Shown here piece by piece: positions 9,955-34,860 of a stretch of DNA of 64,000 nt. Numbering within the stretch: the stretch's first letter is position 1; each line of letters starts with the position of its first letter. The translations under genes were made by a program, and so were the position numbers. This stretch comes from an uncultured Gemmatimonadales bacterium. GTDB taxonomy: Bacteria > Gemmatimonadota > Gemmatimonadetes > Gemmatimonadales > GWC2-71-9. The DNA is taken from assembly GCA_963828735.1 (NCBI GenBank), contig CAWHFW010000003.1:205105-269104 (forward strand). Direction: 5' to 3'. The notes beneath the pieces are model-generated. The model did not search any database. It was not told the DNA's origin and was given only the letters and a program-made list of their open reading frames with translations.

Positions 9955-10677
9955 ATGGCGTTCTCGCTCTACGTCGCCCTCGGCGACTCGATGAGCACCG
10001 ACCACTATCCGACCTGCGACGTCCGCAACCTCGACGCGCCGCCCGGACGGCTGGACCCGCTCGGCGCCGCCGCGCTGCTCCACACGAACGATGACGAGCG
10101 CTGGCCCGAGTTCCGCGCGCGCGACCTCGACCGGCTGTTCCGCGGCGTGGAGTTCCGGAACCTGGCGGAGGACGGCGCGATGATCGACGACGTCGCGACC
10201 GAGGAGCTCTCGCGGCTCGGCCACGACTCGGACGATCCCGACATCCTGCTCACCCTCGCCGCCGGCGGGAACGATCTGCTCGACGCGCTCAGGTCGGGGA
10301 AGTCGCTGGAGCGCTCGGTGCGGCAGATCGAGGGGCGCTACGCCGATCTCGTCGCCACCGTGCGGGAGGAGCTGCCCGCCGCCACGCTGGTGCTCACCAC
10401 GGTGTACGACCCTACGGATGGCACCGGCCGGCTTCCCGGACTCGAGTCGATGGGGCAGCTGCCGCTCGAGTACCTCGACCGATTCAACGAGGGCGTGCGC
10501 CAGCTCGCGCGGGAGATCAAGCACACCGTGGTCGCCGATGTGCACCGCCATTTCCTTGGCCACGGCGTGAACGCCCCCGAGGCAGAGCGCTGGTACTGGC
10601 GGCGAAACCTGATCGAGCCGAATGCGCGGGGCGCGAGCGAGATCCGGAGGGTGTGGGTGGAGGCGGCGGGGATGTGA
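9955..10677 (+). CDS. SGNH/GDSL hydrolase
   Basis: YVALGDS, GGND, IEPNARG motifs. Confidence 0.85.
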   Translation: MAFSLYVALGDSMSTDHYPTCDVRNLDAPPGRLDPLGAAALLHTNDDERWPEFRARDLDRLFRGVEFRNLAEDGAMIDDVATEELSRLGHDSDDPDILLTLAAGGNDLLDALRSGKSLERSVRQIEGRYADLVATVREELPAATLVLTTVYDPTDGTGRLPGLESMGQLPLEYLDRFNEGVRQLAREIKHTVVADVHRHFLGHGVNAPEAERWYWRRNLIEPNARGASEIRRVWVEAAGM

Positions 10678-10848
10678 GCGGTGAGTGGTGAGTGGTGAGT
10701 GGTGAGCGGTGAGTGGTGAGCGGTGAGCGGTGAGCGGTGAGCGGTGAGCGGTGAGTGGTGAGCGGTGAGTGGTGAGCGGTGAGCGGTGAGCGGTGAGCGG
10801 TGAGCGGTGAGCGGTGAGCGGTGAGCGGTGAGCGGTGAGCGGTGAGCC
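10674..10848 (+). repeat. Tandem heptamer repeat (GTGAGYG), ~25 copies
   Basis: Uninterrupted GTGAGCG/GTGAGTG units; the first unit contains the SGNH stop codon. Confidence 0.97.
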
Positions 10849-10941
10849 GGTCCGCGAACCCGGAAGGCCCTGTTCCGCAACGGTCACCGCCTGGGCCAGC
10901 CGCCCGGAAGCGGGTGACCCGACGCGGATGACCCGAGAATG

Positions 10942-10984
10942 AAAAACAGCGGCCGGATCGCCTCGAGGCGATCCGGCCGCTGTT
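10942..10984 (-). terminator. Intrinsic terminator of the cold-shock gene
   Basis: Perfect palindrome AACAGCGGCCGGATCGCCTCGAGGCGATCCGGCCGCTGTT with a T-tract on the minus strand. Confidence 0.8.
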
Positions 10985-11004
10985 CCGTTCAGTCGGGCGT
11001 GCGA

Positions 11005-11214
11005 CTACTGCAGCTTGACGACGTTCTCCGCGGCGGGGCCCTTCTGGCCCTGCACGACGTCGAACTCGACCCGCTCGCCCTCGGCCAGGCTCTTGAAGCC
11101 CTGGGCCTGGATGGCCGAATGGTGGACGAAGCAGTCCTTCTCACCGCCCTCGGGCGTGATAAAGCCGAAGCCCTTGGCGTCATTGAACCATTTGACCGTT
11201 CCGGTAGTGCGCAT
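11005..11214 (-). CDS. Cold-shock protein (CspA family)
   Basis: [15 protein letters not shown] (RNP1), CFVHHSAI (RNP2); AAGGAG RBS. Confidence 0.96.
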
Positions 11215-11343
11215 TGTCCTGCTCCTTGTACTGTGGTAATCGGAGGTGGGGACAAGCCGCACGGCCGACTACGGTGTGCGTGGATTCTCCCTCCACGCGG
11301 GGCTCGGCTGCCGCAGCGCAGCACTGCGCCAGGAACGACAACC

Positions 11344-14635: not shown

Positions 14636-14728
14636 GTCACCCGATAAGAGCACACCCGGAGTGATCCGGGGCCGCAAAACCAGAGGTCTCGCCCGGTCCA
14701 TCGGCGAGATAGCTCGGTGCCGAAGGTG
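14636..14728 (+). ncRNA. GEMM-I (c-di-GMP-I class) riboswitch, A20 variant (predicted 3',3'-cGAMP-responsive)
   Basis: CGATAAG-A-GCACA-CCCGGA-GTGA-TCCGGG-GCC-GCAAA-ACCAGAGG-TCTCGCC...GGCGAGA-TAGCTCGGT-GCCGAA: P2 with GNRA loop, GCAAA junction, P3, 3' GCCGA; ~150 nt upstream of a gene. Confidence 0.8.
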
Positions 14729-15746: not shown

Positions 15747-17411
15747 ATGGACCGCGACGCAACGTCTCAGACCGCAGCACCGGCTAACGCCGCCGCCCGG
15801 CTCGACGAGGGTCGGCAGGAGGAGCGCGCCGGCAACGTGGCGGCTGCAGAGGCGGCGTACCAGTCGTCCTGCGCGCAGTCCGAGGCAGCGGGCGACCGGG
15901 TCACGCAGTCGATGGCCCTGCGGCACCTGGCGCTGCTCCAGCATCAGCGCGGCGCGGCGAGCCGGGCGACGGAGCTCGCGCGGCGCGCGTACGACGTGGC
16001 GCTCGCGGCCGGCCAGCGCGAGCTCGCCGCGCACGCGCTCAACGTCCTCGGCGGCTTCACCTTCGAAGGCGGCGACCTGGCCGCCGCCCGCCGCACCTTC
16101 GACAGCGCCCTCGCGCTCGCGAGCGGCAGCATTGCGCTCCGCGCGCGTATCGAGCAGAACCTCGGCATCCTCGCGACCGTGGAGGGCAACCACGACGCGG
16201 CCATGGGCCACTACGGGCGGAGCCTCGACGCGTACGTGGCCCTGGGGGACGAGGGCGGCGTCGCGCTCGCGTATCACAACCTGGGCATGATCAGCGCCGA
16301 CCGGGAGCGCTGGGAGGAGGCCGACAGCTACTTCCGGCACGCCTTCCAGGGTGCCGAGCGCGCGGGCGACATCCACCTCCAGGGCCTCTGTCTCCTGAAC
16401 CACACCGAGGTCCACCTCGCCCGGCAGTCGTACGACCTGGCCCGGGCCGGGATCGAGCGCGCGCTGGGCATCTTCGACCAGCTCGAGGCGCGCATCGACA
16501 AGGCCGACGCCTACCGGATGCTCGGCGCCGTGCACCGGGTCACCGGCCAGCTCGAGTCGGCGGAGCGCAACCTGCTCCGCGCCCGCGGACTCGCGGACGA
16601 GATGCAGTCGGTGCTCGGCGGCGCCGAGACCAACCGCGAGCTCGCGCTCCTCTATCAGCAGCTCGGCCGCAACCGGGACGCGCTCCACGCGCTCAACCTG
16701 TCGTACCAGCTCTTCCGCCGGCTCAACGCGCGGACCGAGCTGGTGGACGTCGGGCGCAAGATCGGCGACCTCGAGGGAACCTACCTTCGAGTCGTCCACG
16801 AGTGGGGCCAGTCGCTCGAGTCGGCGGACAGCTACACCCACGGCCATTGCGGCCGGGTGGCGGAGTACGGACTGGCGGTCGCCCGCGCGCTCGGCTTCGA
16901 CCCCGGTCAGCTCACGGCGATCCGCCTCGGCGCCTACCTGCACGACCTGGGCAAGGTCCGGATCCCGGAGGAAATCCTCAACAAGCTGGGCAAGCTCACC
17001 GTCGAGGAGTTCGAGACGATCAAGATGCACCCCGTGTGGGGCCTCGAGATGCTGACCGAGGTGGACTTCCCCTGGGACCTCAAGCCGATCATCCGCTGGC
17101 ATCACGAGAAGCACGACGGCTCGGGCTACCCCGACGGGCTCAAGGGCGACGAGATCCCGGTGGCCGCGCAGGTGATCTGCATCGTGGACGTGTACGATGC
17201 GCTCACGACGACGCGGAGCTACAAGCCGGCGTATACGCCGTCGGAGGCGTTGGAGCGGATGGCCGAGGTGACGCACTGGTGGCGGCCGGACGTGTACGAA
17301 GCGTTCCTCGAGGCCGTGGGGCGGCCGGAGGTGCGGCGGCACGTGGAGGCGCCGCGGCACGTCGCGGCGCGGGCGATCTCGGACGAGGAACTGGGGGAGG
17401 CGGCGGCGTAG
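15747..17411 (+). CDS. TPR + HD-GYP cyclic dinucleotide phosphodiesterase
   Basis: N-terminal TPRs; HCGRV, LHDLGK, HHEKHDGSGYP, DVYDALTTTRSYK. Confidence 0.92.
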   Translation: MDRDATSQTAAPANAAARLDEGRQEERAGNVAAAEAAYQSSCAQSEAAGDRVTQSMALRHLALLQHQRGAASRATELARRAYDVALAAGQRELAAHALNVLGGFTFEGGDLAAARRTFDSALALASGSIALRARIEQNLGILATVEGNHDAAMGHYGRSLDAYVALGDEGGVALAYHNLGMISADRERWEEADSYFRHAFQGAERAGDIHLQGLCLLNHTEVHLARQSYDLARAGIERALGIFDQLEARIDKADAYRMLGAVHRVTGQLESAERNLLRARGLADEMQSVLGGAETNRELALLYQQLGRNRDALHALNLSYQLFRRLNARTELVDVGRKIGDLEGTYLRVVHEWGQSLESADSYTHGHCGRVAEYGLAVARALGFDPGQLTAIRLGAYLHDLGKVRIPEEILNKLGKLTVEEFETIKMHPVWGLEMLTEVDFPWDLKPIIRWHHEKHDGSGYPDGLKGDEIPVAAQVICIVDVYDALTTTRSYKPAYTPSEALERMAEVTHWWRPDVYEAFLEAVGRPEVRRHVEAPRHVAARAISDEELGEAAA

Positions 17412-17839: not shown

Positions 17840-18722
17840 ATGCGCCTGCCCTTCGAGCCCGACCATCAGTACGTCCGCCATCCCTTCGCGACCGCGATAA
17901 CGACCGCGGGCCGGGTGCTGTTCACCCGGCCCGGCGGGCCGGTTAAGCACTGCACGAACCCAGACCCCGGGGCTGCATCGGAGTTGTGGGACGCCCTGGC
18001 GAGGCCGATCCGCGGACGCGACCTGGTTTCCCGGTCCCGCCTGGAGCCGAGAAGTGCCGCGGCTCTCATGGAGTTTCTGCTCGAGCACCAGATTGTCATG
18101 CCTTGGACCCTGACGGAATCCGAGCCCACCGACTCACGGCCGGATCTCGAGGACACGGTGCGGCCCTGCCATCATCTCGTCTTGGGTATCACGGGCGCGG
18201 TGCAAGCCGTGTTCGCTCCGCACATCGTTCAGCGTCTCGCATCCCACTTCACCGATCGACTCGACGTAGTGCTCACCGAGTCCGCCCAGAAGTTCGTACA
18301 GCCGAGGTCGCTGTCGGTTCTGGGCGTTTCCGTCTGGTCCGATCCGTTTGACCCTCTGGAGGCCGGCAGGGTCATCCACATCGAGCTGGCGACACAGGCG
18401 CAGCTGGTCTTGGTGTATCCAGCCACGGCGGATGCGATCTTCCGCCGGCGCACGGCTCTGCTCCGATCTCCTCTCCTTGATCGTGAGTGCCACGGTAGCG
18501 CCGGTCGTCATCGTGCCCAGCATGAATCCCGCCATGTGGCGGCACCCGCCCACCCAACGCAACCTCCGGACATTGCGGGACGACGGTGCCTTCGTGGTGG
18601 AGCCCGGTCCGGCAAGGTCGGCGGCGAGTCGAGCGGACAGCGAGGCGGGCGGACCCGGACTAGGACCGGACGCCGCGAACCTGATCGGCATTCTGGAAGC
18701 CATCCTGCATCTCAACAGATGA
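17840..18722 (+). CDS. HFCD (LanD/EpiD-like) flavoprotein with N-terminal RRE-like winged helix; frameshifted near 18445-18456
   Basis: LVLGITGAV, VVLTESAQKFV, HIELA, PATAD, then in another frame CSDLL...PSMNPAMW...QRNLRTLRDDG; restoring two single bases gives FRLAHGLCSDLL; no PPC-synthetase (CoaB) half. Confidence 0.85.
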
Positions 18723-18921
18723 ACCCCTCCGGTGACTGGGGGAGATGGAACTGCTGGGGATCCTCGACCACCTCGATCTCCTCCGACTCTGATACGGTTA
18801 CACCGTACTCGCCTAACACTGTCCTCGGGTCTGCCTTGAACCGTTCTCTGAAGGCCGGATCGGCCCACGCCCGCTCTACGATCTGCCGGTAGATATCAAA
18901 TTTGTCAGGGGGGATAGCCAT
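18712..18921 (-). CDS. NHLP (nitrile hydratase-like leader) RiPP precursor with C-terminal Cys
   Basis: GAGGAGG RBS; IVERAWADPAFRERFKADPRTVL...LPQSP NHLP pattern; ends EGFIC*. Confidence 0.85.
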   Translation of the reverse strand: MAIPPDKFDIYRQIVERAWADPAFRERFKADPRTVLGEYGVTVSESEEIEVVEDPQQFHLPQSPEGFIC

Positions 18922-18975
18922 ACGTGCCTCCTCGGTGCGTGGTGCGGTTGAGCTACCGCCTCAGGACGAGGCCAA

Positions 18976-21147
18976 TCAAAGGAAGAAGCCGATAGGGTTC
19001 AGCTCCGCTTCGACACGAGGCCGGTCGAGCCACCCCGCCTCGACCGGAGCGGTATACAACCGGCCCGGCGCGAACCGCGCCCGGAAGTGCCGGAGCTCCG
19101 GGACGATCGCCTTGATCACCGGGACGCCGATGTCGGGACGGGTCTGATCGAGAAACAGCAGCTTCAGGCCGCGGCGCGCGAGCAGCTCTTCGCAACGCCC
19201 GAGATCACGCGCGAGATCGGTCGTCGCCAAGGGAGGCACGTCGTCGAGGCGTACAAGCGGAACCGGTGCTGGAGCGAGATACGGCTGATCCACGATGGTG
19301 GCCTCGCGAAGCCAACGGTCCACCGCAGGATCCAGGCTTCCAGACCTCTCCGCCGATGCAATGCACGTTCGCACCTGCTCCATCTCGGTCAGCGCCCGCC
19401 TGAGCGCCGCCGCAGGGTCGAGATGGGTGCCGAAGCCGAGTACGATGCGTTCAGGACCTGCGGCGGTCTGCCGGGAGATCGCCGCGAAAGTAGGAATGCC
19501 GATGTCGCTAGTGATATCGATGGCCCATAGCTCCCTGCCCAGTGAGCGATAGTGCGCCACCAAGCTCTCGCAGTAAGGGGCTTGGGTGCGGGCGAGATCG
19601 ATTCCTGGCCGGGCGACGCGGTTGTACCACCAGAGCGCGAGGCTGTCCCGCTCGACCAGCTCCATCAGGCCCCGCAGCAGCGCCTCCTCTCGGGAGCTCG
19701 CAGCGGCACTGCCGCTCGGATCCGGCAGGCAGTACGCCGCCCGATCCCCCAGCGGATAGCCGGTGTAGAGCAGCATCGTCGGCAGATATCTGCAATCGTC
19801 ACCCGAGAGCGACCGGAGCGGAGTCCATTCGATCGGATCCGCCGGATCGAGCGGGAGAGGAACGTCGCTGGTGCGGGGGGCGCCCGCATCGGGGCGCTCG
19901 CGCCGGCGGTACTGCGCCTCGCTGAACTGCATGCACTCATTGGGGTGGATCGCGGCCGGCCCGAGCGCTTCTAAGGAAGCCAGAACGCGAGGCTCGTCTC
20001 CTTGAAAGACCCCGGAATACCGCTCGATTGCCTCGCCGAGCGCGCTCACGCGCGCCTCTTCGTCAGTCATGCCCTTGCCGGTGCCGCGATCCAACCCGGT
20101 CTCAGACTGGACGCGCTCCTCGTGCAGCGGGTCCGCCGCATAGCGGGCGACATGGACGTAGAGCGGTGCTCCCTCCTCGGATGGCAGCCGCCGCAGGTCC
20201 ACGGCGACCCCGACCACGGGATCAACCAGGCCCTCCCAGCGGTGAAGCGTCGCTACGTCTTCGCCTTCCAGGTACGTGCCTCCTTTGGGCAGCCGAAGCG
20301 GTGAGGTGGAAAGCCGGCCGTATAGCGCGGGGTCCCCGCACGCCGGGCACTGCGGCCTCCAAGGAACCCGGTGTGTCCGCAGCGGTTTGCCTATGGAGTC
20401 GAAACTGACGATCGCGTCGGGGGCGGCAGCGGTGAGTTGGCGTGCGAGGAGGCCAGCGAAGAGGGCCGAGCCCGGCCACCCGGGGCTGAGGGGCCGCACC
20501 GGGCGCGACTGTCCAAGGAGCCGGTACTCGTGCGGATGATTCCGTCTCAGACGGTCCGCTAGACAGCGCCAGCAGCAGCTGGCATGGGGATGAAAGTGCG
20601 GGCCGATCCAGATCGCCGGACCGACAGGCCGGGCCAGCAGCCACGATTGGCCGGTTTCGAGCGCGGCCTGATTGAGCCCGGCGAGCTCCGGGCGAAGGTA
20701 GCTGTCCGTCAGAACGACGGAGAGCGGGGCCGAATCGTCGAGCACGAAGCCGCAGGCCTGAAGCGCCTCGGCAGCGACGCCGCTCGGGACGTCTCCGAGA
20801 GTCGTCAGCGCGATCCGCACTCCGGCGGCGGTGACGGGACCCCCGGAAGCTGCGCCGCGCTTCCCTGCATCCGACCTCTCCGCGGCGCAGGGCGCATCCA
20901 CCACACACCCCAGGCGTTCCAACTGCCACAGCGCGTACCACACGTCCACGCGCCGCCAGCCGGCCTCGAAGTGCTTGATCAGTAGTTCGGTGCTGGTCGG
21001 GCCATTTAGGAGCGGAAGCAGATGCTCGTACAGTCCGGTTGGAAGCAGAGCATCGCCGTCGTCGGAGAGGAGCAGCACTCCCCGGCCTTCCCAAAGCAGG
21101 GCTCGGTGGTCGTCCTTCAACCTCGGGTGCTGTAGCATCACCGACAC
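18976..21147 (-). CDS. Fused E1-like/YcaO cyclodehydratase (TOMM C-D fusion)
   Basis: WIGP...CWRC and RPQCPACG Zn motifs; GKG...SALGEAIERYS, ELVERD, RALTE YcaO motifs; C-terminus ELNPIGFFL. Confidence 0.93.
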   Translation of the reverse strand: MSVMLQHPRLKDDHRALLWEGRGVLLLSDDGDALLPTGLYEHLLPLLNGPTSTELLIKHFEAGWRRVDVWYALWQLERLGCVVDAPCAAERSDAGKRGAASGGPVTAAGVRIALTTLGDVPSGVAAEALQACGFVLDDSAPLSVVLTDSYLRPELAGLNQAALETGQSWLLARPVGPAIWIGPHFHPHASCCWRCLADRLRRNHPHEYRLLGQSRPVRPLSPGWPGSALFAGLLARQLTAAAPDAIVSFDSIGKPLRTHRVPWRPQCPACGDPALYGRLSTSPLRLPKGGTYLEGEDVATLHRWEGLVDPVVGVAVDLRRLPSEEGAPLYVHVARYAADPLHEERVQSETGLDRGTGKGMTDEEARVSALGEAIERYSGVFQGDEPRVLASLEALGPAAIHPNECMQFSEAQYRRRERPDAGAPRTSDVPLPLDPADPIEWTPLRSLSGDDCRYLPTMLLYTGYPLGDRAAYCLPDPSGSAAASSREEALLRGLMELVERDSLALWWYNRVARPGIDLARTQAPYCESLVAHYRSLGRELWAIDITSDIGIPTFAAISRQTAAGPERIVLGFGTHLDPAAALRRALTEMEQVRTCIASAERSGSLDPAVDRWLREATIVDQPYLAPAPVPLVRLDDVPPLATTDLARDLGRCEELLARRGLKLLFLDQTRPDIGVPVIKAIVPELRHFRARFAPGRLYTAPVEAGWLDRPRVEAELNPIGFFL

Positions 21148-21317: not shown

Positions 21318-24300
21318 GTGTCCAAGACAGGAGTGACCTGCCCATCCTGCGGCGAGACCGCTCCGGATGAGGCAAGCGCCTGCCGGTCCTGCGGGGCCTC
21401 GCTGAGCGAGGCCCATTTGAGGCCCGGCTCCTACCGGCGGCTTCAGGAAGCCGTGGCTGACCGGTACGTGATTGAGCGCCGTCTCGGTCACGGCGGAATG
21501 GCTCTCGTCTATCTGGCACGCGACCTGAGGCACGACCGCCTCGTCGCTCTCAAGGTCCTCTCGCCGGAGCTCGCGGCCAACCTTGGGGCCGAGCGTTTCC
21601 TTCACGAGATCCAGGTCGCCGCACACCTTCAGCACCCACACATCCTGACGCTGCTGGACTCGGGCACCTTCCAGTGGGATCCCGGCATCCCGGGCTTGTA
21701 CTACGTCATGCCCTACGCCAGGGACGAATCGCTCCGAGAGCGGATTGAGCGTGAGACTCAGCTTCCCCTCGCAGAGGCCCTCCGCATCACCCGCGAAGTT
21801 GCCGGCGCCCTCGATTACGCCCATCGCGAAGGGGTAGTGCATCGGGATATCAAGCCAGGGAACATCCTGCTCTCCGACGGGCATGCCCTGGTCGCCGACT
21901 TCGGCATCGCGCGTGCGATCCACAGCTCTGCCGGCGACCGCTTGACGGACTCAGGTATCGCCGTCGGCACTCCCTCCTATATGAGCCCAGAGCAGGCCAC
22001 GGGTCGTGAGGCGGATGCGAGAAGTGACATCTACAGCCTCGGCTGCGTTCTCTACGAGATGCTCGTCGGCGAGCCGCCGTTCACCGGTCCGACCCGGCAG
22101 GCGATCGCCGCCCGGCGGCTCACCGAACCTGTTCCGCACATCAGAACCGTGCGTGAGAACGTGCCCGAGCGCGTGGAACGTGTTATCCGCAAGGCGCTCG
22201 CGAAGGTGCCGGCCGACCGCTTCGCCACAGCGGCAGACATGGCCGAGGCACTCGGGGCCGTGAGGCCCAGCTCGGGCACGGCGGTGGCCGGCTCCAAGCG
22301 CCGGGCGAAGCGCTCTTGGCGGCTCTCCGCTCGTCTCACCTGGGGGCTGCTAGCGGCGGTGGCGGCTGTGGCGCTCGCGGTCGTGTGGGCACTTCGGCGC
22401 CCCGCAGGGGCGCCAGAGGATTCTCTAGTCTCACGAGTGGCCATCCTGCCGTTCGCCGCGCAAGGTGGGGAGCAGACGAATCAGCTGAGCGGAGCCATCG
22501 TCACCCTTCTCAGCTCCGCGCTCGATGGCGTGGGGGAGCTGCGGACAGTGGCTCCGAGCGCTGTGTTAGGGGCGGCGGGTGAAGGGGCCGCGCAACCGCT
22601 GGACCAGAAGCAGGAGCAAGCTATCGCCACCCGGCTCGGCGCGCGGCGGTATGTCTCGGGCACCGTCGTGGAAGGCGCCGACGGTCGCGTGACCGTCAGC
22701 GCCTCGGCGTACGACCTGCGGTCCGGTCTTCTCTCGGAGCGGATCACCGTCGAGGGCAGAAAGCCGGGTGACATATTCCGCCTGGTCAACGACCTGGCGG
22801 TGCAGTTGCTGGGCGCGTTCGGCATTCACCAGGCGCCGCCCCGTCTGGAGAGCATCAGCACCAACTCGGTTGTCGCCCTCAACGAGTACCTCAAGGGTGA
22901 GAGCGCGCTGCGTCGCGGCGACTATGGACAAGCCGTGACCTCCTTCGGGCACGCGGTGGCGGCGGACAGCCTCTTCGCTCTGGCCTGGTTCCGGCAAGCG
23001 TACGCCCTGACTTTCACGGAAACGCCTGAGGGGGGGGAGCGCCCACTGCGCCGGGCGCTTGCCCTGGCGAACCGGCTCTCCGTGCGGGACCGCCGCCTCG
23101 CGGAAGCGTTCAACGCCGCGATCAACGTGGATCCCCAGCGAGCCGACCGCCTCTACCGCGCCCTGGTGTATGAGTACCCGGACGATGTGGAGGCCTGGTT
23201 CGGTCGCGCGGATGTGATGCTTCATTTCGGGCCGCTGTATGGACTGGCCATGGACTCGCTGAGCTACGCGTTCCAGCGCGTCCTTTTCCTGGACCCCGCT
23301 CATTCGGAGGCTCGGACCCACCTGCCGTGGGCAGCGGCACTGGATCTCCGGCTTGGCTTGCTCGACTCGGCCGCTCGTGCGCTCTCGACCGATTCGAAGG
23401 GATACTACACTCCAGTATTTCGAATCTTCCGCGCTTTCAGCAAACGCGACTCCGCAGCCGAGGACTCGGCGATCTCCGGCTTTCCCACCATGGACGACCT
23501 GCAACGCCTGTTGGCGGTCAACATGACGGCCACGCTGCAGGACCCGGCAGCAACCGAGCGGCTAGCGCTTCGGCTGTTCACCGACCCCAGCCGTCTGCCC
23601 GAGGTGCAGGCCTTCGGCCACGTCATGGCGGCCTATCTCGAGCTGGCGCGGGGGCGAGGACACGCTGCGTCCCGGGAGCTCGACGCGGCCGACAGGCTGG
23701 ATCCCGCCGCGGCGCTGGAGGGACGCGCGCTACTCGTCCTCCACCCCATGTGGGAGCAACCAGATTCCACGGTTCGAAAAGTCCTCGTCCGCCTGCAGCG
23801 GTGGAATGCCGCCACTGCCGCCCCCAGCATCTCGGCCAACCCTTGGCTGGTCCCCCACGACAGCCTTCATCAGCAGATCCGGACCTTCCTGCTGGGGGCC
23901 CTCGGCGCTCGACTGGGCGACGGCGCAGAAGCTCGGCGTCGGGCACGCGAGCTCCTGGAGCTCGACACGGCGACGACGCAAGGAGTCGTCGGCCGGGCGC
24001 TGGGGCATGAGATCCTGGCCTACACGGAAGCGCGGGCGGGGAAGGCAAGGACGCGCTCGGGGAGCTCGATCAGAGCAGCCTGCGAGGCCCTCAGGCTCGG
24101 GTCTGGCAGCGGGCGTACAGCTCACCATTCATGTCCCAGGCCCAGGCGCGGTATCTCCGAGCGGGCATTTTGAGTGATCTCAAGCGGGACCCCGAGGCGA
24201 TGAGGTGGTACCACTCGCTGTGGATGGCGAATGCCTTCGATCTCGCCTTCCTGGCACCCGCGCACCTCGGGCAGGCGGAGATCGAGGCGCGCGAGGGTAA

Positions 24301-24418
24301 CCGTCAGAACGCGCTGCAACACTACAGGGCCTTCGCGGCGCTCTGGAAGGAGGCGGATCCCGAGCTGCAATGGAGGATCGATCGTGTCAGAAGCAGTATC
24401 GCCAAGCTCGCACAATGA
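21318..24418 (+). CDS. Ser/Thr kinase with N-terminal zinc ribbon, TM, TolB-N-like and TPR domains; frameshift near 24040-24130
   Basis: CPSCG..CRSCG; LGHGGMA, HRDIKPGN, DFG, GTPSYMSPEQ; TM WGLLAAVAAVALAVVWAL; tail ...LWKEADPELQ in ORF 24131-24418. Confidence 0.88.
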
Positions 24419-26652: not shown

Positions 26653-27317
26653 GTGAGCGAAATGCAAGCCCGCAATCGGTGGAAGTTCGAGCTGCTGCTC
26701 AGGTTCCTGGCGGTCGCGCAGATTCCCCTTCTGGTCTTTTCGCTGGCTGTTGTCCTCTATCTGCAGGTTAAGGCTCGCCCGCTTTCGGCAAGAGTCGCCG
26801 CGTTGAACGACACGATCGTGTTGAAATCAGTGAGCGTCGATTCATTGAGGAAGGAGGAGGCTGACGTTCGAGCACGACTACGAACACTTGCCGCTGCAAT
26901 CGACACGGTTCAAGCTCATGTGGATTCACAGAAAGCAGGTGGGGCAGCCGTTCAAGCTCAGACCCCACGCGCGAACAGTCCTCCGTCGACGCTGAAGGAA
27001 GGCTGGGTCTATCTAGGGGCGTACGATAGCGCCTCAACCACGTGGTCGAGACGGTATTTCTCGTTTGGGGCTCAAACAAAGCCCGCGAGTCTGGAAGGAA
27101 AGACAGTTTCCGCGAATGCTCAGGTCAACGTGCGTCGCAACCGGTTCTACGAGCCTGGCTACGACACAATCGAGGACGTGCTCCGGCCCCGAAGCCAAGT
27201 GACAATCACCGAGATACGGTCGTGGAACGACGCGGGCACTTCATCTGGGCTCACGTGCGATTCTCGGTACCGAACCGATCGAAACCCGCCGGAGTCGGCG
27301 TCAAGACTTACCCCTGA
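26653..27317 (+). CDS. Membrane-anchored coiled-coil hypothetical protein; frameshift near 27236
   Basis: N-terminal TM plus coiled coil; the inverted copy at 44840-45373 gives the intact end WNDAGYFIWAHVRF...KTYP*. Confidence 0.65.
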
Positions 27318-27397
27318 CCTGTCGGCAGCCCCGAGCCGCATCATATCAGTAGTGGCGGCGGCACGACGACTACGACGCGTCACAACCGCGCGTAGCC

Positions 27398-28727
27398 TCA
27401 GCGCGGCCGCGCCGCCTCGAACTCGTGGGTGAGCCGGTGCCGCGCGGTACGGGGCAGCAGGAGCGCCGCCACGAAGCTCACCACGCCCGCCGCGGACAGG
27501 TACACCGCCGGCGCGAGGGGCTTACCCGTCCGGGCGAGGAGCCACGCCCCGATGAGCGGCGTGGTGCCGCCGAGCAGCGCCATCCCGAGGTTGTGCGCCA
27601 CCGACACCACGGTGCAACGCACCCGCCACGGCGCCAGCTCGGCCATGGTGGCGGGCAGGGCGCCGCTGCCGGCGGCGACCAGCAGGGCGAGGCTCACCTG
27701 CCCCACGATGATGCTGCCTGTCTCCCCTCGGGTCATGAGCGACATCAACGGGTAGGACAGGAGCGCCATCGCGGCACCCCACGCAACCAGCACTGGTCGC
27801 CGGCCAATTCGGTCGCTCAGCGCGCCCGCCGCCAGCGAGGCAACGAGCGACAACGCCATCGCGAGTGTGTTGATCCCCAGCGCGGTGCGCGCCGGCACCT
27901 GGGCCACCTGCGCGAGCCAGGTCGCCGCGTACACGAACGTCATGTAGAACCCGACGGCCAGGCCGGCCACCAGCGCCACGAGGTGCAAGGTGGTCAGCCA
28001 ATGGGAGTGGAGCGCCTCGGCCAGCGGCGACCGGGACGGAGCCTGGTGGGGTACCCGCTCGATGTAGTAGCGCCGGATGGCGATCCCGCCCAGGCCCACG
28101 CAGATGCCCAGGATGAAGGGGATGCGCCAGCCGTACGCCATCACCGCGTCGGGTGTCATCACCGTATTCACGATCGCGCCGGCCGCGGAGCCGAGCAGCG
28201 TGCCCGCGAACGCACCGACCGGCCCCCAGCTGCCCATCCACCCGCGCCGTCCCGGCTCCGACCCCTCGACCAGGAACACGGTCGAGGCGCCGTATTCGCC
28301 GCCGACCGCGAGGCCCTGCAACAAGCCGGAACCCGAGCAGGAGGATCGGCGCGGCGATCCCGATCGTCTCAGTGCTCGGCAATACGCCGATCAAGAAGGA
28401 GGGCAACGCCATCGCCATCACGGACCAGAGCAGCGCCTGCTTACGTCCGAACTTGTCGCCTACCCAGCCGAACAAGGCCCCGCCCACCGGCCGCATGATG
28501 AAGCCGGCCGCGAAGGTGCCGAAGGCGGCGAGGAGCGAGGCGGTGGGGTTGTGGGCCGGGAAGAAGTGAGCGCCAATTTGCCTGGCGAAGAAGCCGAAGA
28601 GGGCGAAGTCGTACCACTCGAGCACGTTGCCAGCTACACCTGCGATGACGCCGCGGCGGACGGCACGCGGAGTGTGGAACTCCTGCGTGATCACGCCGGG
28701 CGGGATGATTTGGGGGATGGTGGCCAT
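27398..28727 (-). CDS. MFS transporter (MHS/ProP-like), copy 1; frameshift near 28320
   Basis: GNVLEWYDF, MRPVGG, DKFGRK, QGLAVGGEYG. Confidence 0.88.
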
Positions 28728-28909
28728 GGGATCGTCGTGATGAGGGATGCCGCAGGGTAAGGCGCGCGCGGTTAGCGCGCCAGAGTCGCAGCGGGCCTGG
28801 ACATCTGAAAGTGGAGTAGCACGAAAGGTCGATTGACACCGCGACGGACCAAAAAACATACTGGAAGCGCCACCGCACCACCCTTCCATCCCCCCGGTGA
28901 GGAGTTCGA

Positions 28910-29499
28910 ATGTTTCGTGCACGCCCCGTCGCAACCCTCCTGGCGGCCGGCCTGGCCGTTGCCGCCTGCTCTGATAGCTCGCCCGTGGCGCCCGAGACCG
29001 GCTCCGCCCCGTCCTTCCGCACCGAGCACAGCCCGCCCGGCCCCGGGCACAGGTCAGCCGCTCGGACGCCCAGTTTTTTTCCACCTTCACCGAGCCCGGC
29101 GCGCCCTACTTCGTCGCGATCGGCCTGAACTCGAGCGACGTCGTGGAATTCTGCAGCGGCGGCGACCCGGAGCTGGGCGGCTTGAAAACTCACTTCGTCG
29201 AGCAGCCGCACGGCGGGGCGCAGACCCTGTTCAAGTCGGCGGGCAAGGTTCCCCTGCTCCTCTTCCCGGCCGGCACGGAGGATATCTGCGACGGCTCGCC
29301 AGTCGCCGAGGGAACCGGGACCTACACCGACGGCTCCGCCAACCTCTTCAGGGGCATCGGCCAGGGGACATCCGGGTTCCGGATCCGTGGCCAGGTGACA
29401 GACCAGGCGGGCACGCGGCTCCACGTGCTCGTGGCGGTCCACAGCCAACTCGGGCCGGGGGGATTCGTGGACATCGTGAATAAGATCGAGGTGAAGTGA
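28910..29499 (+). CDS. Hypothetical lipoprotein, copy 1; frameshift near 29040-29050
   Basis: Lipobox VAAC; intact in copy 2 (42658-43248). Confidence 0.7.
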
Positions 29500-29525
29500 G
29501 CGCGCAGGTCGGCACACGGGCGCCG

Positions 29526-29842
29526 GCGAGCGACGGCGGCGAGCAGGCCCGCCGGGGCGCTGCAGTCGCCGGCACGTACGCGTGGGGTTGCTACTAAGGG
29601 CGGAGGTCGTGCCGTCGACTGACGCGTCCTCTGGGCCTGCCGCCGCCGTCGCTCGCGCGAAGCTCCGATGCTAGAGCGGCGCGCGTCCGCGCATTCCGGA
29701 ATGCTCGGGGCGCGGGGGCGACGGGATGGCTCCCGCAGGGCGCGTCAGTCGACGCCACTACCTCAGCCTCTGGTAGCAGCCCAACGCCTGCGTGGCGGCG
29801 ACTGCAGCGCCCGAAGGGAGCTATCCCGTCGCCCCCGCGCCC
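29526..29842. repeat. Pair of ~130-nt hairpin elements in inverted orientation (mirror copy at ~42318-42634)
   Basis: ~75-bp cores at 29555-29630 and 29738-29812 are imperfect reverse complements; each core is enclosed by its own ~25-bp stem. Confidence 0.75.
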
Positions 29843-29862
29843 TGCGCCGACACGCCGGATGC

Positions 29863-31762
29863 CTACGCGCGCGGATAGCCGATCGCCGCGAGATCCGCCG
29901 AGATCTCTTCCAGGCTCGCCGGATCATCGATCGTCGCCGGCACCGTCCACGCCACCCCGTCCGCGATCTTCTTCACCGTCCCCCGCACGATCTTTCCCGA
30001 CCGCGTCTTGGGCAGCCGCTTGACGACGGTCGCCGTCTTGAACGACGCCACCGGCCCGATCCGCTGCCGCACCAGCTCCACCAGCTCCGCCACCAGCTCC
30101 ACCCGATCCCGTACCGCCCCGTGCTTGAGCACCACCAGGCCGAGGGGCACCTCGCCCTTGAGCGCGTCGCTGACGCCCACCACCGCGCACTCCGCGACGT
30201 CCGGGTGCGCCGCCAGCACCTCCTCCATCTGGCCGGTGCTGAGCCGGTGACCCGCGACGTTGATCACGTCGTCGGTGCGGCTCATGATCCAGAGATAGTC
30301 GTCCTCGTCCTTGTAGCCCGCGTCGGCCGTCAGGTAGTAGCCGGGATAGGCGGTGAGGTAGGTGTCGCGGAAGCCCTGGTCGTTGTTCCAGAGCGTCGGC
30401 GTGGCGCCCGGGGGAAGCGGGAGCTTCATGACGACGTTGCCCGATTGGCTCGGGGCCGTCGCCCTGCCCTCGTCGTCCAGCACCCGCACGTCCCAACCCG
30501 GCACCGGTACCGAGCACGAGCCCGGCTTGACCGGCAGCAGCCCGAGCCCCGCGCAGTTGCAGCCGACCGGCCAGCCGGTCTCGGTCTGCCACCAGTGGTC
30601 GATCACCGGAACGCCGAGCTGCCGCTCGGCCCACTCGAGCGTCGGCGGGTCGCAGCGCTCGCCGGCCAGGAAGAGCGTGCGGAAGCGTGAGAGATCGTAG
30701 CGGCGGATGTGCTCGCCGTCGGGATCGTCGCGCTTGATGGCGCGGAACGCGGTCGGCGCGGTGAAGAAGACGCCGACTCCGTGCTGCGCGATGACGCGCC
30801 AGAACGCGCCCGCGTCCGGCGTGCCGACCGGCTTCCCCTCATAGAGCACCGTCGTGTTGCCGTGGAACAGCGGGGCGTAGACGATGTACGAGTGGCCGAC
30901 GGTCCACCCCAGGTCCGACGCGGCCCAGTACACCTCGCCCGGCTCGACCCCGTAGATGTTGCGCATGCTCCAGGTGAGCGCGACCAGGTGGCCGCCGTTG
31001 TCGCGCACGATGCCCTTGGGCTGCCCGGTCGTGCCGGAGGTGTAGAGGATGTAGAGCGGATCGGTGGCGAGGACCGGGACGCAGTCCACCGGACTGGCGC
31101 CGGCCGCGAGCTCGCGCCAGTCGTGGTCCCGCCCCGGCACCATCGTCGCCTCGCCTTGGGGACGCTGGAGCACGATGCAGCACTCGGGCTTGGCGTCGGC
31201 CAGCTCGATCGCCCGGTCGAGCAGCGGCTTGTACGGCACCACCCGGCCGATCTCGATGCCGCAGGAGGCGCTCAGGATCGCCTTGGGCCGGGCATCGGTG
31301 ATCCGGCTGGCCAGCTCGGGCGACGCGAACCCGCCGAACACCACCGAGTGAATCGCGCCGATGCGGGCGCAGGCCAGCATCCCGATCACGGCCTCGGGGA
31401 CCATCGGCATGTAGATCACGACTCTGTCGCCGCGGCCCACGCCCTTCCCGGGCCAGCACGCCCGCGAACCGGGCGACCTCGTCGCGCAGCTCGCGGAACG
31501 TGTAGGTCCGAACCGTGGAGGTGACCGGGCTGTCGTAGATCAGGGCGAGCTGGTCGGCGCGGCCGGACTCGACGTGGCGGTCGAGGGCGTTGTAGCAGGT
31601 GTTGGTCTCAGCGCCGGGGAACCAGCGGTAGAGGGGCGCGCGGGAGTCGTCGAGGACCGCGTCCCAGCGGCGGTACCAGTGCACGGCCTCCGCCGCCTCG
31701 GCCCAGAAGGACTCGGGGGCGGCCTGCCAGCGCGCGTAGACCTCGCGATACGTGGAGGGCAC
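29863..31762 (-). CDS. prpE: Propionyl-CoA synthetase, copy 1; frameshift near 31450
   Basis: YILYTSGTTGQPKG, RDNGGH, LFLAGERCDP, DHWWQTETGW, LPKTRSGKI. Confidence 0.88.
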
Positions 31763-32077
31763 CTGGCCAAGCTAGGCGCGGGGTGGGGCGTGGCCAAGGG
31801 TCGGGTTGAGTCGGGGGAGCTCCGAAGCCAGTAGGAATGAGGGGGAACATCGGCCGGCCTGGCACATTCCCTCTCAGGTGGCGAACGGCCAGAACACCCA
31901 GGCGGTCGGCTCCAGGGCGCGCGTCGCGTGCCATCCGTCAAGGCAGCGCGGCGACTGCCGATAGCCCCCTGCATGCAACGATCCGCACACGGTCTGCGCA
32001 CGGGACCGAACCTTGCAGACTTCTCTGCGATGGACAAGCTGACCCACCAGCCAAGCAATCTTTTCTTCGGAGATGCC

Positions 32078-32680
32078 ATGCGCACCCTCTCCGCCCCGCG
32101 CCAGGCCGCACTCGTCCTCGCACTTGCGGCGTTCGCGGCCTGTGACGGCCAGGCCCCCAACGCCACTACGTCGTTCTCGGTCATGCTCAAGGACGCCCCG
32201 GGTGACGTGCAGCACGCTGTGGTGACGATCAGCGAAGTGGACCTGGTGGGCTCGGGCGGGGTGCAGGTCCTCACCCAGACGCCGACCACCGTGGACCTGC
32301 TCACGCTCGCGGCCGACGCCACGACTCTGGTGCAGGGCATCGAGGTCCCCTCCGGCAGCTATGAGCAGCTTCGCTTCAAGATCACCGGGGCGTGTCTCGC
32401 GGTGGAGAATGGCACCGGCGGAAGTGACGTGTACGCGACCGACGGCTATGACGCCACTCAGTGCGGCGGCGAGGCCACCGGCGCGCTGCAGGCGCCGAGC
32501 TTCGCGCAGTCGGGGCTCAAGGTGACCATGGCCGGCAACGCGCTGGAGCTCACGGGACCGGAGAAGATCGTGCTGGTGGATTTCGACGTGAGCCAGAGCT
32601 TCGGGCATGAGGCAAGCGGGTGGGTCATGCACCCGGTCGTGACCGGCGGTGAGATCACGACGGAGCCGCCGGCGCCGTGA
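32078..32680 (+). CDS. DUF4382-like lipoprotein, copy 1
   Basis: Lipobox FAAC; LKDAP...AVVTISEV...GSYEQLRF...VDFDVSQSF...MHPV. Confidence 0.8.
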   Translation: MRTLSAPRQAALVLALAAFAACDGQAPNATTSFSVMLKDAPGDVQHAVVTISEVDLVGSGGVQVLTQTPTTVDLLTLAADATTLVQGIEVPSGSYEQLRFKITGACLAVENGTGGSDVYATDGYDATQCGGEATGALQAPSFAQSGLKVTMAGNALELTGPEKIVLVDFDVSQSFGHEASGWVMHPVVTGGEITTEPPAP

Positions 32681-32739
32681 TTCCCGGGGCGGCGGCCGCC
32701 ACCGCCGCGGACCGCCGCAGCCGGTCGCGTCCGCGTCGC

Positions 32740-34860
32740 CCAGCTCGCCATACGTGTTGTCGCCCCAACACCAGGTGCCGCGCCGTGCGTGTCCAGCGCG
32801 CAGGTGTGGCGGGGCCGTGATCGCCGCGGAAGGTATGGGCAGGGATGGAACGATTGGTCGTGCCGTCGCCGAGTGGCCGTACTCGTTGAGGCCCCAGCAC
32901 AGCGTCGGCCCTGATGCCGCGATTCCACAGGAGTGATCGTAGCCCGCGGCGATAAACGAGGCCCCGGGGACGGGAAGTCCGGATCGGGGCTGTGAAGATC
33001 ACCAGTGGATCGGTGCGCCACGTCGTGCCGCCGGACACGACGACCGGGAGGGGCGAGGTCACAGTCGTACCATCGCCAAGCTGGCCGGCCACGTTGTAGC
33101 CCCAGCACACGGCCGCGCCCGCGACAGTGACGGCGCAGGTATGGAGGGCTGTGCGCTGACCTCCTTGATCGCATCGGAGGTATTGACCGGCGTCGTCGTG
33201 GAAGTCGCCCTGGCCGAGCTGACCTTCTTCATTCCGCCCCCACCAGATGCGCTGTGACGGGCCGATGCCACAAGTGTGCGCGAACCCCGCGGACAACTGT
33301 TGAGTCAAGAGCCGCACCTGGCCACGACGATCGTATTGCCGCTCTGCGCGGAATCGCAGTCGTCGACTGCCCCGCCGTCGAGCCGTTCCCGAGTCGGTCG
33401 TCCCCAGCACCAGGCCTCGAAGGCCAGGGTGAACGCGCAGGAGTGATAGAGCGGCGACGATCCGTGTCGATAGCGATAGTCGCCGGGAATCAACGTAGGG
33501 TTGGTGACGGAGCCGACGCGGATCCGAGCCCCAGCCGCCCGTCCGCGTTGTAGCCCCAACACAACAGCCGCTCGCTGGTCGTGCACACGCACCCATGGTA
33601 GCCCCCAGCGTCGATGTACCGAAACACGATCTCCGGCCATCGGCTGGGCGATCGCGTGGAACGTGACTGGCCCGAGGCCCACGACGGTGGCGGTCGCGGT
33701 GTAGATCCCCGGCGTGGGAGGCAGCGTCCAAACGACGGAGGACTGCCCCGCATCGTCGGTGGGTACTCCACTGTTTGATTTACGTGCCGCGCTCGGCACC
33801 CGGTTCACCAGCACTCCCGGGGCGAACCGCCCGGCCGAATCAACGGCCCTCAGGGTCAGACCGGTGCCGCAACGGGGATCCGATTACCCCACGCTGGTCT
33901 CGTGTCGCCATTGCATCGGTTGGCGGACCGGCCAGGTTGTCGAGGGGCTCGACGGCATCTTTGCAGGCGAGCGCGACCACGGCGGCGATGGCCGTCCAAT
34001 GCAGGGCCTCACTGGACGCACCGCGGACGGTCCCCATGGGGGCGTGGTCCTGACTCGCCGCTGACCTCGTCGCCCAGGCGGCGAACCACTGCGATGTCCT
34101 CGAGTACACTCTCAGCGTACCTGCCTCCGTGGTCTTGGAGAGGGTCCAGCACTGCCCCGCGTCGCCCAGATCGTACTCCGCCTTTCCCTGACCGGAGATT
34201 GTTCCGTAGTTATCGACGCTGCGCCCAGCTAATACGTGTCCGAGTCGATGACGAGGGCCGTCCCGCCGCAGCCGGTCAGCAAGGTCAGTACGGCGGGACC
34301 CCAACACACGCGCATAGAGACTCCATTCCGCTTACAGGGTAGTGGTCGCAGGACTTCGTGAGCGGGTGTCGCGGGGACTTCGCGATGCCGCGCCAGCGGC
34401 CACCTCCCGCGGCCATGGGGCGGGGCGCCGCCGCACGTAGTCCGACTTGAGCTGCATGGCCGCCATCGCCAGCGCCCTGGGATTCCGATCGGTGGCCTCG
34501 TAACGCCGCTGCTCCAACCGGCTCCGCCTCGGCCCGGAGATCCTCGATCTCTTCCTCGGGGGCGCCGGCGTAGGCGCGAGCCGGTGTCGCGGAGCCCGGC
34601 AGCCGCCGCATCCAACGCACGTCGTCCGCGCTGCGGACCGCCTCTTCGCGCGCACGTGCCGCCTGGAACCGGAGGAAGGTCTGCTCGACCACCGGCTCGA
34701 CGCGGTCTTCGCCGTCGAGGTTCAGCCACCGGCATGGCGGTCGTGCGGCGCTTGTTCCGCCTCGCTCACGACGTCCGCCTCGATCCGGATCTCGCCGAGC
34801 TGGACCTTGCCCAGCTCAGCCACGTTTTCGACGTGGAATACCAGGCCGAGGAGCAATACG
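32740..34860 (-). pseudogene. Indel-riddled inverted copy of the 34868-37100 genes (vWA tail, small lipoprotein, RCC1 protein)
   Basis: Fragments such as DDAGQSSVVWTLPPTPGIY, QQLSAGFAHTCGIGPS and VEQTFLRFQAARAREEAV appear in shifting frames. Confidence 0.85.

Follow-up and report, generated by a model that had tools for sequence, protein, structure and literature searches.

An RRE-fused LanD-type decarboxylase linked to an E1-YcaO and a Cys-terminated precursor in soil bacteria: a predicted route to C-terminal thiazole peptides

Results

Organisation of the cassette

The window analysed here is a 64-kb stretch of DNA from the genome of an uncultured Gemmatimonadales bacterium (G000, completeness 97.5%). 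It contains a rare four-gene cassette of soil bacteria, which encodes an RRE-fused decarboxylase, a precursor peptide, an E1-YcaO protein and a membrane kinase:

17840..18722, plus strand: RRE-fused HFCD (LanD-type) flavoprotein, about 294 aa after discounting an assembly error (PF02441, homologues, solved relatives)
18712..18921, minus strand: NHLP-like precursor, 69 aa, three-helix leader, tail F-I-C (profiles, model, read contigs)
18712..18722, both strands: 11-bp antisense overlap of precursor I-C-stop (minus) and decarboxylase [LV]-[SN]-R-stop (plus)
18976..21138, minus strand: fused RRE/E1-YcaO cyclodehydratase of the LynD/TruD/MusD type (TIGR03604); ATG at 21138 is the likelier start, an in-frame GTG at 21147 is possible
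21318..24418, plus strand, divergent: zinc-ribbon / Ser-Thr kinase / transmembrane helix / TolB-N-like / TPR gene (Pfam, NCBIfam)

The first-pass annotation of this DNA had described a minimal three-gene cluster at 17840..21147. The three adjacent genes for precursor, E1-YcaO and RRE-flavoprotein were all found there; the gene count has to be raised to four, as the kinase gene, also conserved, is situated a little beyond these coordinates. When six related loci were compared with the window, similarity to five of them was confined to 17.8-24.4 kb.

Decarboxylase and precursor genes are convergent on opposite strands and overlap at the precursor end. The identical 11-bp overlap is present in 5/5 loci whose precursors carry a single terminal Cys and absent in 6/6 loci whose precursors end Cys-Cys. 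Since I-C-stop overlaps the decarboxylase end in the single-Cys loci, terminal Cys and decarboxylase are not independent of each other there.

Concerning genes that might have been expected nearby, profile searches of G000 gave no match for a TIGR03605 dehydrogenase, a C39 peptidase, TfuA or TldD, which bears out the earlier statement that dehydrogenase, TfuA and exporter are missing. Neither a lanthipeptide-type dehydratase nor a bottromycin-type cytochrome occurs among the neighbours scanned, no protease was found, and the four-gene cassette holds no DapBCD-type genes and has a precursor that ends in Cys and not Thr. No sigma-70 promoter was found, terminator matches were at chance level, and the cluster has short repeats only, probably by chance. 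A plasmid search returned 155 records, none with 80% query coverage, and in a PF22767 profile search of genomes no control matched.

The decarboxylase

Four features of the decarboxylase gene matter for its assignment:

17864..18112, plus strand: N-terminal RRE domain, bounds approximate, transferred from homologue P0002 (AlphaFold2 model of P0002)
18377..18379, plus strand: conserved His (H-x-x-L-A), taken as the EpiD His67 equivalent (invariant in the alignment; aligned to the SpaF/TvaF His)
18446..18457, plus strand: two single-base gaps in the assembly, an apparent frameshift (contigs of short-read runs)
18516..18539, plus strand: PSMNPAMW motif, its Asn taken as the EpiD Asn117 equivalent (P-x-M-N-x-x-M-W; alignment to SpaF/TvaF)

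PF02441 matches both pieces of the broken frame (43.3 and 27.3 bits, cut-off 22.7). The frameshift is an assembly error, because short-read contigs from three studies (runs X5, X7 and X9) carry both missing bases; contigs of run X1 stop at the gap site, and their loose ends agree. Intact homologues have 290-322 aa and share 51-77% identity. In the AlphaFold2 model of P0002, residues 22-104 superimpose on the PbtF RRE (8T19) with Z 9.9 and rmsd 2.3 over 80/86 residues. The catalytic His and the Asn of P-x-M-N-x-x-M-W are invariant across the homologue alignment and align to those of SpaF and TvaF. In EpiD, roles have been assigned to His67 and, for Z-geometry, to Asn117 (PMC8549060, in part).

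The closest solved relatives are SpaF (7CFU) and TvaF (6JLS), ranked first both by profile and by Foldseek; in comparisons with the predicted model, CoaBC, MrsD and TvaF come out level (Z 24.2, 24.0 and 23.9). In a quick tree the RRE-HFCD proteins form a 38-row clade (SH-aLRT 99), separate from the side that holds all 23 CoaBC-labelled rows (98). A grouping with CoaC, which would have undermined the first-pass assignment, is thus not seen. Moreover, the homologues are proteins of about 300 aa with an RRE, devoid of the CoaB domain and of shared grouping with CoaC/CoaBC, and G000 carries a separate CoaBC-like gene on contig C1. Absence of the clamp Cys was considered as proof of oxidative chemistry and rejected, since several CoaBC rows of the tree alignment lack it too. 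By fold, by His and Asn and by the Cys-ended peptide encoded next to it, the window protein is predicted to act as an HFCD/LanD peptidyl-Cys decarboxylase. That it is instead a CoaC paralogue or pseudogene in a chance neighbourhood, as source annotations of homologues (phosphopantothenoylcysteine decarboxylase) and the apparent frameshift might suggest, can be dismissed in view of the gene being intact in the reads, the RRE fusion, the separate clade, the separate CoaBC-like gene and a linkage fixed at 11/11 loci.

Some related RRE-HFCD proteins carry a fused methyltransferase or LanC-like domain, in keeping with a general pattern in which a partner enzyme captures the enethiol. Crude ORF picking at six myxobacterial RRE-HFCD loci gave no obvious Cys-ended precursor. 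A complex prediction for decarboxylase and precursor scored 0.00 and was counted neither for nor against. Flavoprotein or decarboxylase fusions to an RRE are not mentioned in the main text of PMC12710340 and PMC7470986, whose supplements may list such proteins.

The precursor

The precursor ends ...SPEGFIC*, with a GAGGAGG site upstream of the gene. As noted before, it has exactly one Cys, the last residue, and I-C-stop is unchanged in the contigs of 4/4 runs. PF02979 matches with 31.7 bits (cut-off 27.2), TIGR03793 with 42.6 bits, below its cut-off of 50.9. The leader is NHase-alpha-like, with three helices in the predicted structure. A double-Gly motif is absent in 12/12 precursors, and PF03412 (C39 peptidase transporter) had no match in the five genomes searched; the control matched in 7/14.

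All 12 precursors, from 11 loci, end Ile-Cys or Ile-Cys-Cys, with Ile before the first Cys in every one and Phe, Leu or Ala before the Ile. Six loci end Cys-Cys. The terminal Cys is the only conserved Cys, Ser or Thr; a core with internal residues of this kind, as in azole-type precursors, is not conserved here. Eleven of the termini fit the tripeptide rule of EpiD; the one at L291, ending A-I-C, falls outside. Ser occurs at -7 in half of the six single-Cys precursors (that of G000 and both of G424), while tails at L008, L290, L291 and L006 lack Ser and Thr. Three single-Cys precursors have no Ser or Thr in their last 17 or more residues, and there both enzymes can act only on the same Cys. 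To this extent the earlier proposal that both act on one Cys stands; at the six Cys-Cys loci they could use different residues.

The YcaO and its loop

The YcaO gene product matches TIGR03604 with 248 bits (cut-off 219) and TIGR03882 with 69.5 bits (cut-off 36.9), and its solved relatives are LynD, TruD and, third, MusD (E 2e-141 to 2e-133). It retains E-x-x-E-R, E-L-V-E-R-D and R-x-x-x-E, which we take to be the Mg-ATP-binding Glu/Arg motifs, and is intact with these residues at all single-Cys loci having enough DNA. The C-terminus N-P-I-G-F-F-L has one Pro, compared with the Pro-rich PxPxP of LynD/TruD/PatD-type enzymes, and varies likewise in ThcOx-linked sisters. One loop of the active site differs:

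19711..19722, minus strand: D-P-S-G loop replacing D-S-N-G of LynD/TruD (alignment; unchanged in X1 and X9 contigs)

Counted along the alignment, the changed position corresponds to LynD S529-N530. The loop Asn is lost in 4/4 single-Cys loci, compared with 0/5 Cys-Cys and 0/35 other loci. Among the 19 closest proteins the loop reads DPSG in 15, DPNG in three and DSNG in one. In a quick tree the single-Cys YcaOs lie within one clade, which has 18 rows (SH-aLRT 100). The change could equally mark weakened or different activity. Nothing on the role of the S-N-G loop appears in the available part of PMC13063428. The YcaO was not found in 60 close relatives. In G424 its frame is split in the assembly; G941 and G748 offer intact natural gene sets.

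Related loci and the ThcOx swap

The cassette recurs at 11 distinct loci. L002, L003, L004 and L007 are near-copies and four contigs are shorter than 5 kb; the near-copies reduce the 11 loci to about six lineages. Homologous clusters keep the flavoprotein at 11/11 loci and the terminal Cys in 12/12 precursors, in agreement with the first-pass reading. In sister cassettes from the same bacterial family (18 loci), the slot after the precursor that the decarboxylase fills here is held by a ThcOx dehydrogenase, and only 3/18 precursors end in Cys. Conversely, none of the 11 decarboxylase loci has a flavin dehydrogenase (SagB/McbC/ThcOx) within the available DNA, and TIGR03605 has no match in the four single-Cys genomes G000, G424, G941 and G748; G830 has one, on another contig. 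The swap is not absolute, since L295 and L297 have ThcOx and a terminal Cys with no decarboxylase found, and L296 combines ThcOx with an HFCD that stands alone at a distance of 3 kb. Some sister YcaO loci, L223 among them, lack both enzymes, which makes absence of a dehydrogenase in itself weak evidence. A Fisher test of terminal Cys against slot gene gives p of about 1e-5, a value given no weight in view of the relatedness of the loci.

The membrane kinase

The kinase gene encodes a hydrophobic helix near 22338-22395 and, in the assembly sequence, has an apparent frame change near 24045. Its lineage accompanies 6/6 decarboxylase loci and 0/17 ThcOx loci. G000 has roughly 90 kinase loci, of which the window kinase is the best match to the neighbour kinase at 6/6 other decarboxylase loci. 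Matches to TIGR03903 (133.7 of 705.75 bits) and TIGR04510 (71.3 of 400) are partial and below cut-off. From its domains it is probably a receptor kinase, and it may sense the product of the cassette.

Discussion

Proposed chemistry

Gene content, conservation and enzyme families of the cassette are established at the level of sequence. For the single-Cys members we consider the following chemistry probable. Both enzymes would bind the folded NHase-like leader via their RREs. The flavoprotein would oxidatively decarboxylate the terminal Cys to a Z-enethiol (-46.005 Da), as EpiD does, and the YcaO would use ATP to close the enethiol by cyclodehydration onto the amide between Ile and Cys (-18.011 Da). 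As the C=C bond is already present, the cyclised ring would be aromatic, a C-terminal thiazole without 4-substituent, and the decarboxylase would supply the oxidation that ThcOx gives in the sisters. Cys-Cys members would carry a thiazoline at the first Cys and, at the last, either an enethiol or a thiazole. EpiD yields Z-geometry and is inactive on S-alkylated Cys (PMC8549060, in part), and the daptide YcaO cyclises the C-terminal residue only after its decarboxylation (PMC12670281, in part). For an enethiol as YcaO nucleophile no precedent was found in the literature searched; nor was this enzyme pair described there, in a search of partial texts, largely outside subscription journals. A loss of 64 Da alone is not diagnostic, because AviCys, or an oxazoline together with an enethiol, would give the same mass.

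More tentatively, and with somewhat less than even confidence, proteases encoded elsewhere would free a short hydrophobic thiazole peptide, or the small modified protein would act uncleaved, with the co-inherited membrane kinase as the likely sensor.

Alternative readings

That the product stops at the enethiol, or at a disulfide or metal complex of it, is unlikely. The YcaO would then act elsewhere (on Ser at -7, or only on the first Cys of Cys-Cys members), cleave a bond like MusD, or be weak. The loop Asn lost in the single-Cys clade, the Ser at -7 in three of six single-Cys precursors and the failure to find a protease point this way, as does MusD, which cleaves peptide bonds with ATP (PMC10885120, in part). 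However, the single-Cys loci with enough DNA all encode an intact YcaO that retains the Mg-ATP residues, the altered loop is a conserved feature of the clade, and the other three precursors offer the YcaO no second residue.

A reverse order, in which the YcaO makes a thiazoline-4-carboxylate that the flavoprotein then decarboxylates oxidatively like the bottromycin cytochrome, would lead to the same thiazole and is quite unlikely. EpiD does not accept S-alkylated peptides (PMC8549060, in part), charge close to the Cys is unfavourable for LynD (bioRxiv 2024.10.14.618330, in part), and no earlier YcaO acts directly on a C-terminal residue according to the available part of PMC12670281. Bottromycin does provide a precedent for azoline-to-azole oxidative decarboxylation (PMC7136475, in part), and the YcaO is closest to the Cys-cyclising LynD and TruD, but the bottromycin ring is formed before follower removal.

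Non-oxidative decarboxylation as by CoaC would turn the Cys into a cysteamine amide, which the YcaO would close to a 2-substituted thiazoline (-62.00 Da). We give this route little credence, despite the structural tie of CoaBC, MrsD and TvaF and despite several CoaBC rows that also lack the clamp Cys, so that nothing decisive follows from its absence here: in the tree the clade is separated from every one of the 23 CoaBC rows, SpaF and TvaF come first by profile and Foldseek, and the ThcOx swap fits an aromatic product.

Very improbable is an AviCys ring, for which the kinase would phosphorylate Ser -7, elimination would give dehydroalanine and the enethiol would add, again with -64 Da. Co-inheritance of the kinase and Ser at -7 in the G000 and both G424 precursors would agree with it, but the kinase has a transmembrane helix and a TPR region and no lyase, four loci have tails without Ser or Thr, and the YcaO would be left without a role.

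Significance

If the preferred order of decarboxylation and cyclodehydration is right, two enzymes guided by a leader make a C-terminal aromatic thiazole, employing neither dehydrogenase nor cytochrome, and the enethiol is a new nucleophile in YcaO chemistry. This end group is found in bottromycin, dolastatin 10 and barbamide, so that peptide engineering would profit from a portable pair of enzymes. Furthermore, the tight link to one receptor-kinase lineage provides a lead on what the kinase loci of G000 sense. A bolder reading, possible with the balance leaning against it, would see a new RiPP class joined to a signalling module, with an enethiol nucleophile, a remodelled YcaO and a thiazole as ligand of a dedicated kinase. 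The cassette would be one branch of a larger group of kinase-YcaO-NHLP cassettes in the same bacterial family, in each of which a short azole peptide would have a receptor of its own, and Cys-Cys members would give thiazoline-thiazole.

Comparison with known systems

The LanD/HFCD enzymes of AviCys peptides (EpiD, MrsD, CypD, TvaF, SpaF) share fold, His/Asn and a terminal X-X-Cys substrate with the present system, whereas the enzyme here carries an RRE. As a dehydratase and a conserved Ser/Thr acceptor are both missing, no AviCys ring is predicted. In thioamitide clusters, such as that of thioviridamide, a YcaO is likewise encoded together with an HFCD. That YcaO is linked to TfuA and installs thioamides (PMC8120280, in part), while the YcaO here is E1-fused and of azoline type, with TfuA in 0/2 genomes searched.

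In bottromycin, too, a YcaO takes part in making the C-terminal thiazole, which is decarboxylated (PMC7136475, in part). The bottromycin pathway uses a stand-alone YcaO, a follower peptide, an amidohydrolase and a cytochrome, with the ring first and decarboxylation last, in contrast to the leader-type precursor and fused YcaO described here. In daptides with the DapY YcaO, the C-terminal residue is also decarboxylated first, and the YcaO then closes a terminal heterocycle with the amide before it. The daptide residue is Thr, however; its decarboxylase consists of two proteins and depends on NAD, a transaminase takes part, and an amine serves as nucleophile in forming an imidazoline (PMC12670281, in part). 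Here, Cys and just two enzymes, one of them a flavoprotein, would lead to an aromatic thiazole.

NHLP azol(in)e RiPPs (MprC/MprD; LynD/TruD with ThcOx) have the NHase-like leader and RRE/E1-YcaO in common with the cassette (PMC12455567, in part). Here, by comparison, an RRE-HFCD occupies the dehydrogenase slot, one or two terminal Cys replace internal Cys/Ser/Thr, double-Gly and C39 transporter are lacking, and the YcaO loop is changed in single-Cys members. The TIGR03903 TOMM kinase/cyclase fusion and the TIGR04510 peptide-modification cyclase are signalling proteins whose names refer to an association with peptide clusters.

Gene content and state of the assembly

The first-pass annotation described a cluster limited to precursor, YcaO and flavoprotein genes. 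All three are present in the window and the cassette is conserved at 11 distinct loci, but a fourth gene, a kinase-TPR gene, belongs to it:

17840-18722, + strand, flavoprotein (RRE-HFCD decarboxylase) gene, broken near 18450, convergent with the precursor gene
18921-18712, - strand, precursor of 69 aa, without double-Gly
21138/21147-18976, - strand, E1-YcaO
21318-24418, divergent from YcaO, zinc-ribbon/kinase/transmembrane/TolB-N-like/TPR gene

Two bases missing at 18446-18457 are present in contigs of three sequencing runs from independent studies (X5, X7, X9), and the loose ends of contigs from a fourth run (X1) agree with them; the decarboxylase gene is therefore intact in nature. The end of the precursor gene is unchanged in contigs from all four runs; the single Cys of the precursor is its last residue. 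Further signs of assembly error are a frame change near 24045 in the kinase gene and a large inverted duplication (26.8-45.4 kb). The latter (26785-32738 versus 39421-45373; 5960 bp, 98.9% identity) flanks a self-inverted 87% stretch (32695-37136), doubles transporter, AMP-binding and DUF4382 genes, and over its whole extent (26785-45373) looks like a long-read fold-back artefact. Elsewhere, a c-di-GMP-I riboswitch (14639-14724, + strand; 54.5 bits, gathering 35) is followed directly 3' by a gene for 291 aa without clear family assignment and then by an HD-domain TPR gene (15747-17411).

Distribution and precursor termini

Metagenome, genome and family searches yielded 11 distinct decarboxylase loci with identical gene order: in the genome holding the window (G000) and in G424, G941, G748 and G830 (= L083), and at L002, L003, L004 (= L005), L006, L007 and L008. 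Since L002, L003, L004 and L007 are near-copies, these represent about six lineages. The RRE-HFCD is rare, its full model having matched just two among 401 genomes from the phylum. The terminal Cys noted at first pass recurs in all 12 precursors of the 11 loci, which end in F-I-C (four), F-I-C-C (six), L-I-C and A-I-C. G424 (L082 / L238), which belongs to the same genus as G000, carries two tandem precursors, both F-I-C-ended, and its YcaO frame is split in that assembly.

At all five single-Cys loci the precursor end overlaps the decarboxylase end by exactly 11 bp. Where the enzyme varies between Ser and Asn within this overlap, the precursor switches between synonymous Cys codons, and 6/6 Cys-Cys loci keep F-I-C without any gene overlap; the peptide therefore seems to be what is under selection. 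Of the 15 closest decarboxylases known without DNA, 14 carry the [LV]-[SN]-[RT] ending that results from the overlap, versus 3 of 83 more distant ones, which predicts further single-Cys loci.

Proposed modification of the terminal cysteine

According to the first-pass annotation, both enzymes act on the same Cys, decarboxylation and YcaO cyclodehydration together giving a thiazole. This ranks as the best explanation and is, in our view, probably correct. LanD enzymes oxidise the terminal thiol, whereupon decarboxylation gives a Z-enethiol, and EpiD accepts [VILMFYW]-[ASVTCIL]-C and rejects S-alkylated Cys (PMC8549060); 11 of the 12 precursor termini fit this pattern. The Z-geometry would place the sulfur beside the preceding amide, and YcaO cyclodehydration would then yield the aromatic ring directly. 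The tails of L008, L290 and L291 hold no Ser/Thr in their last 17 or more residues, so both enzymes, if both act, act on one Cys. Ile precedes the first Cys in single-Cys and Cys-Cys precursors alike, which suggests a ring there as the feature common to both types.

Among the alternatives, an enethiol end product, or a YcaO with another role, is unlikely. The reverse order of the two enzymes is less probable still: the daptide YcaO, according to PMC12670281 the first reported to modify a C-terminal residue, does so only after decarboxylation, charge repulsion being suggested there as the reason, and by analogy this supports the decarboxylase acting first. Slightly behind comes a non-oxidative thiazoline. 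AviCys, for which we see very little prospect, shares its computed whole-peptide shift of -64 Da with the thiazole and with oxazoline plus enethiol; the computed mass of a Ser-free GluC tetrapeptide would separate the thiazole from both.

As to release of the core, the precursor has no double-Gly, and searches of G000 for C39 and TldD gave no match; the YcaO itself may cut the peptide, by analogy with MusD (PMC10885120).

The flavoprotein

Fifteen homologues were found, 14 at 51-77% identity and one truncated. In the model of homologue P0002 the N-terminal domain matches the PbtF RRE (Z 9.9, rmsd 2.3, 80/86 residues). For the catalytic domain, SpaF and TvaF ranked top by profile and by Foldseek, and CoaBC, MrsD and TvaF tied by VIA-align; neither the catalytic His nor the Asn of PSMN varies across 12/12 aligned rows. 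That the protein is a CoaC paralogue can be practically dismissed, as a quick tree (89 rows) separates the RRE-HFCD clade (38 rows, SH-aLRT 99) from the side with all 23 CoaBC rows; G000 carries a CoaBC-like gene besides.

When the search was extended to 50%-identity representatives, the 150 best included many that matched the whole RRE-HFCD profile, and a domain scan of 22 of these found 16 fused to a SAM methyltransferase (among P0108-P0165) and one, P0026, to a LanC-like domain. P0067 has four flavoprotein stretches. At L084 of Haliangium (10013-11305), an RRE-HFCD precedes a double-Gly peptide of 49 aa that ends in FDDAC; a YcaO match was absent from the 20 kb there. Small Cys-ended peptides also lie close to RRE-less HFCD genes (L010, 1103-1315; L085, 6824-6970; L120, 8250-8600).

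The YcaO

The nearest relatives of the window YcaO are LynD, TruD and MusD, and its Mg-ATP Glu/Arg motifs are conserved. One loop, D-S-N-G in LynD and TruD, reads D-P-S-G in the window enzyme. The loop Asn is absent from all four single-Cys loci with coverage, whose YcaOs fall in one clade (18 rows, SH-aLRT 100), and is retained at 5/5 Cys-Cys loci and in 35/35 others; the 19 closest database proteins carry DPSG (15), DPNG (3) or DSNG (1). Judged from sequence, this is a conserved subfamily change, not decay, and it would suit a substrate lacking a carbonyl after Cys.

The membrane kinase

Among about 93 kinase loci in G000, the window kinase is the best match of the neighbouring kinase at 6/6 other decarboxylase loci with enough DNA, versus 0/17 ThcOx loci (ranks 15-42). 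This link, which could be explained by shared ancestry, holds although the FIC and FICC YcaOs do not form one clade. Similarity to related loci is confined to the four genes, except for a transporter common to the window and G424. From its topology, the kinase may be a receptor.

Dehydrogenase or decarboxylase after the precursor

For comparison, the surroundings of YcaO relatives were examined at 48 loci, some of them duplicates; the relatives came from searches matching 35/401 and 22/401 genomes. At 18 of the loci a ThcOx-type dehydrogenase follows the precursor (Pfam-checked for six), and three of the 18 precursors there have a terminal Cys; at 11/11 decarboxylase loci the RRE-HFCD takes this slot, and ThcOx was not found there in the available DNA (four contigs under 5 kb). 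A TIGR03605 search had no match in G000, G424, G941 and G748; matches in G386, G416 and G955 lie at their clusters, that in G830 on another contig.

Several loci count against a clean swap. L296 (G955:C12, 1479-11924) combines YcaO, a precursor ending L-V-C (TATLVC), ThcOx and three further genes, read from the ORFs as flavin amine-oxidase-like, subtilisin-like and RRE-less HFCD. L295 and L297 have Cys-ended precursors and no such decarboxylase was found (G969 is fragmented). Neither enzyme occurs at L223 or in a separate NHLP-YcaO group (L224-L233, L239, L240; precursors ending AGLCCCW or AGLCCCG, no ThcOx match), which has an NHLP-fused 430-450 aa protein or FAD-binding oxidase, plus ABC-type genes.

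The kinase-TPR/E1-YcaO/NHLP/ThcOx cassettes (L292-L308, L221, L222, L237) encode precursors without double-Gly and with very short tails (e.g. QFTIPL, QITIPF, ICKFFC). A co-directional kinase adjoins YcaO in all 17 with flanking DNA, and these cassettes are candidate peptide-receptor pairs.

Relation to known systems

A full-text literature search, covering few subscription journals, returned no description of the enzyme pair or the cassette. The cassette descends from the NHLP-YcaO-ThcOx type, and there is a real chance that it defines a RiPP class. It falls outside the definitions of linear azole peptides, thioamitides, AviCys peptides, daptides and bottromycins; in its proposed way of working it most resembles the daptide system with DapY.
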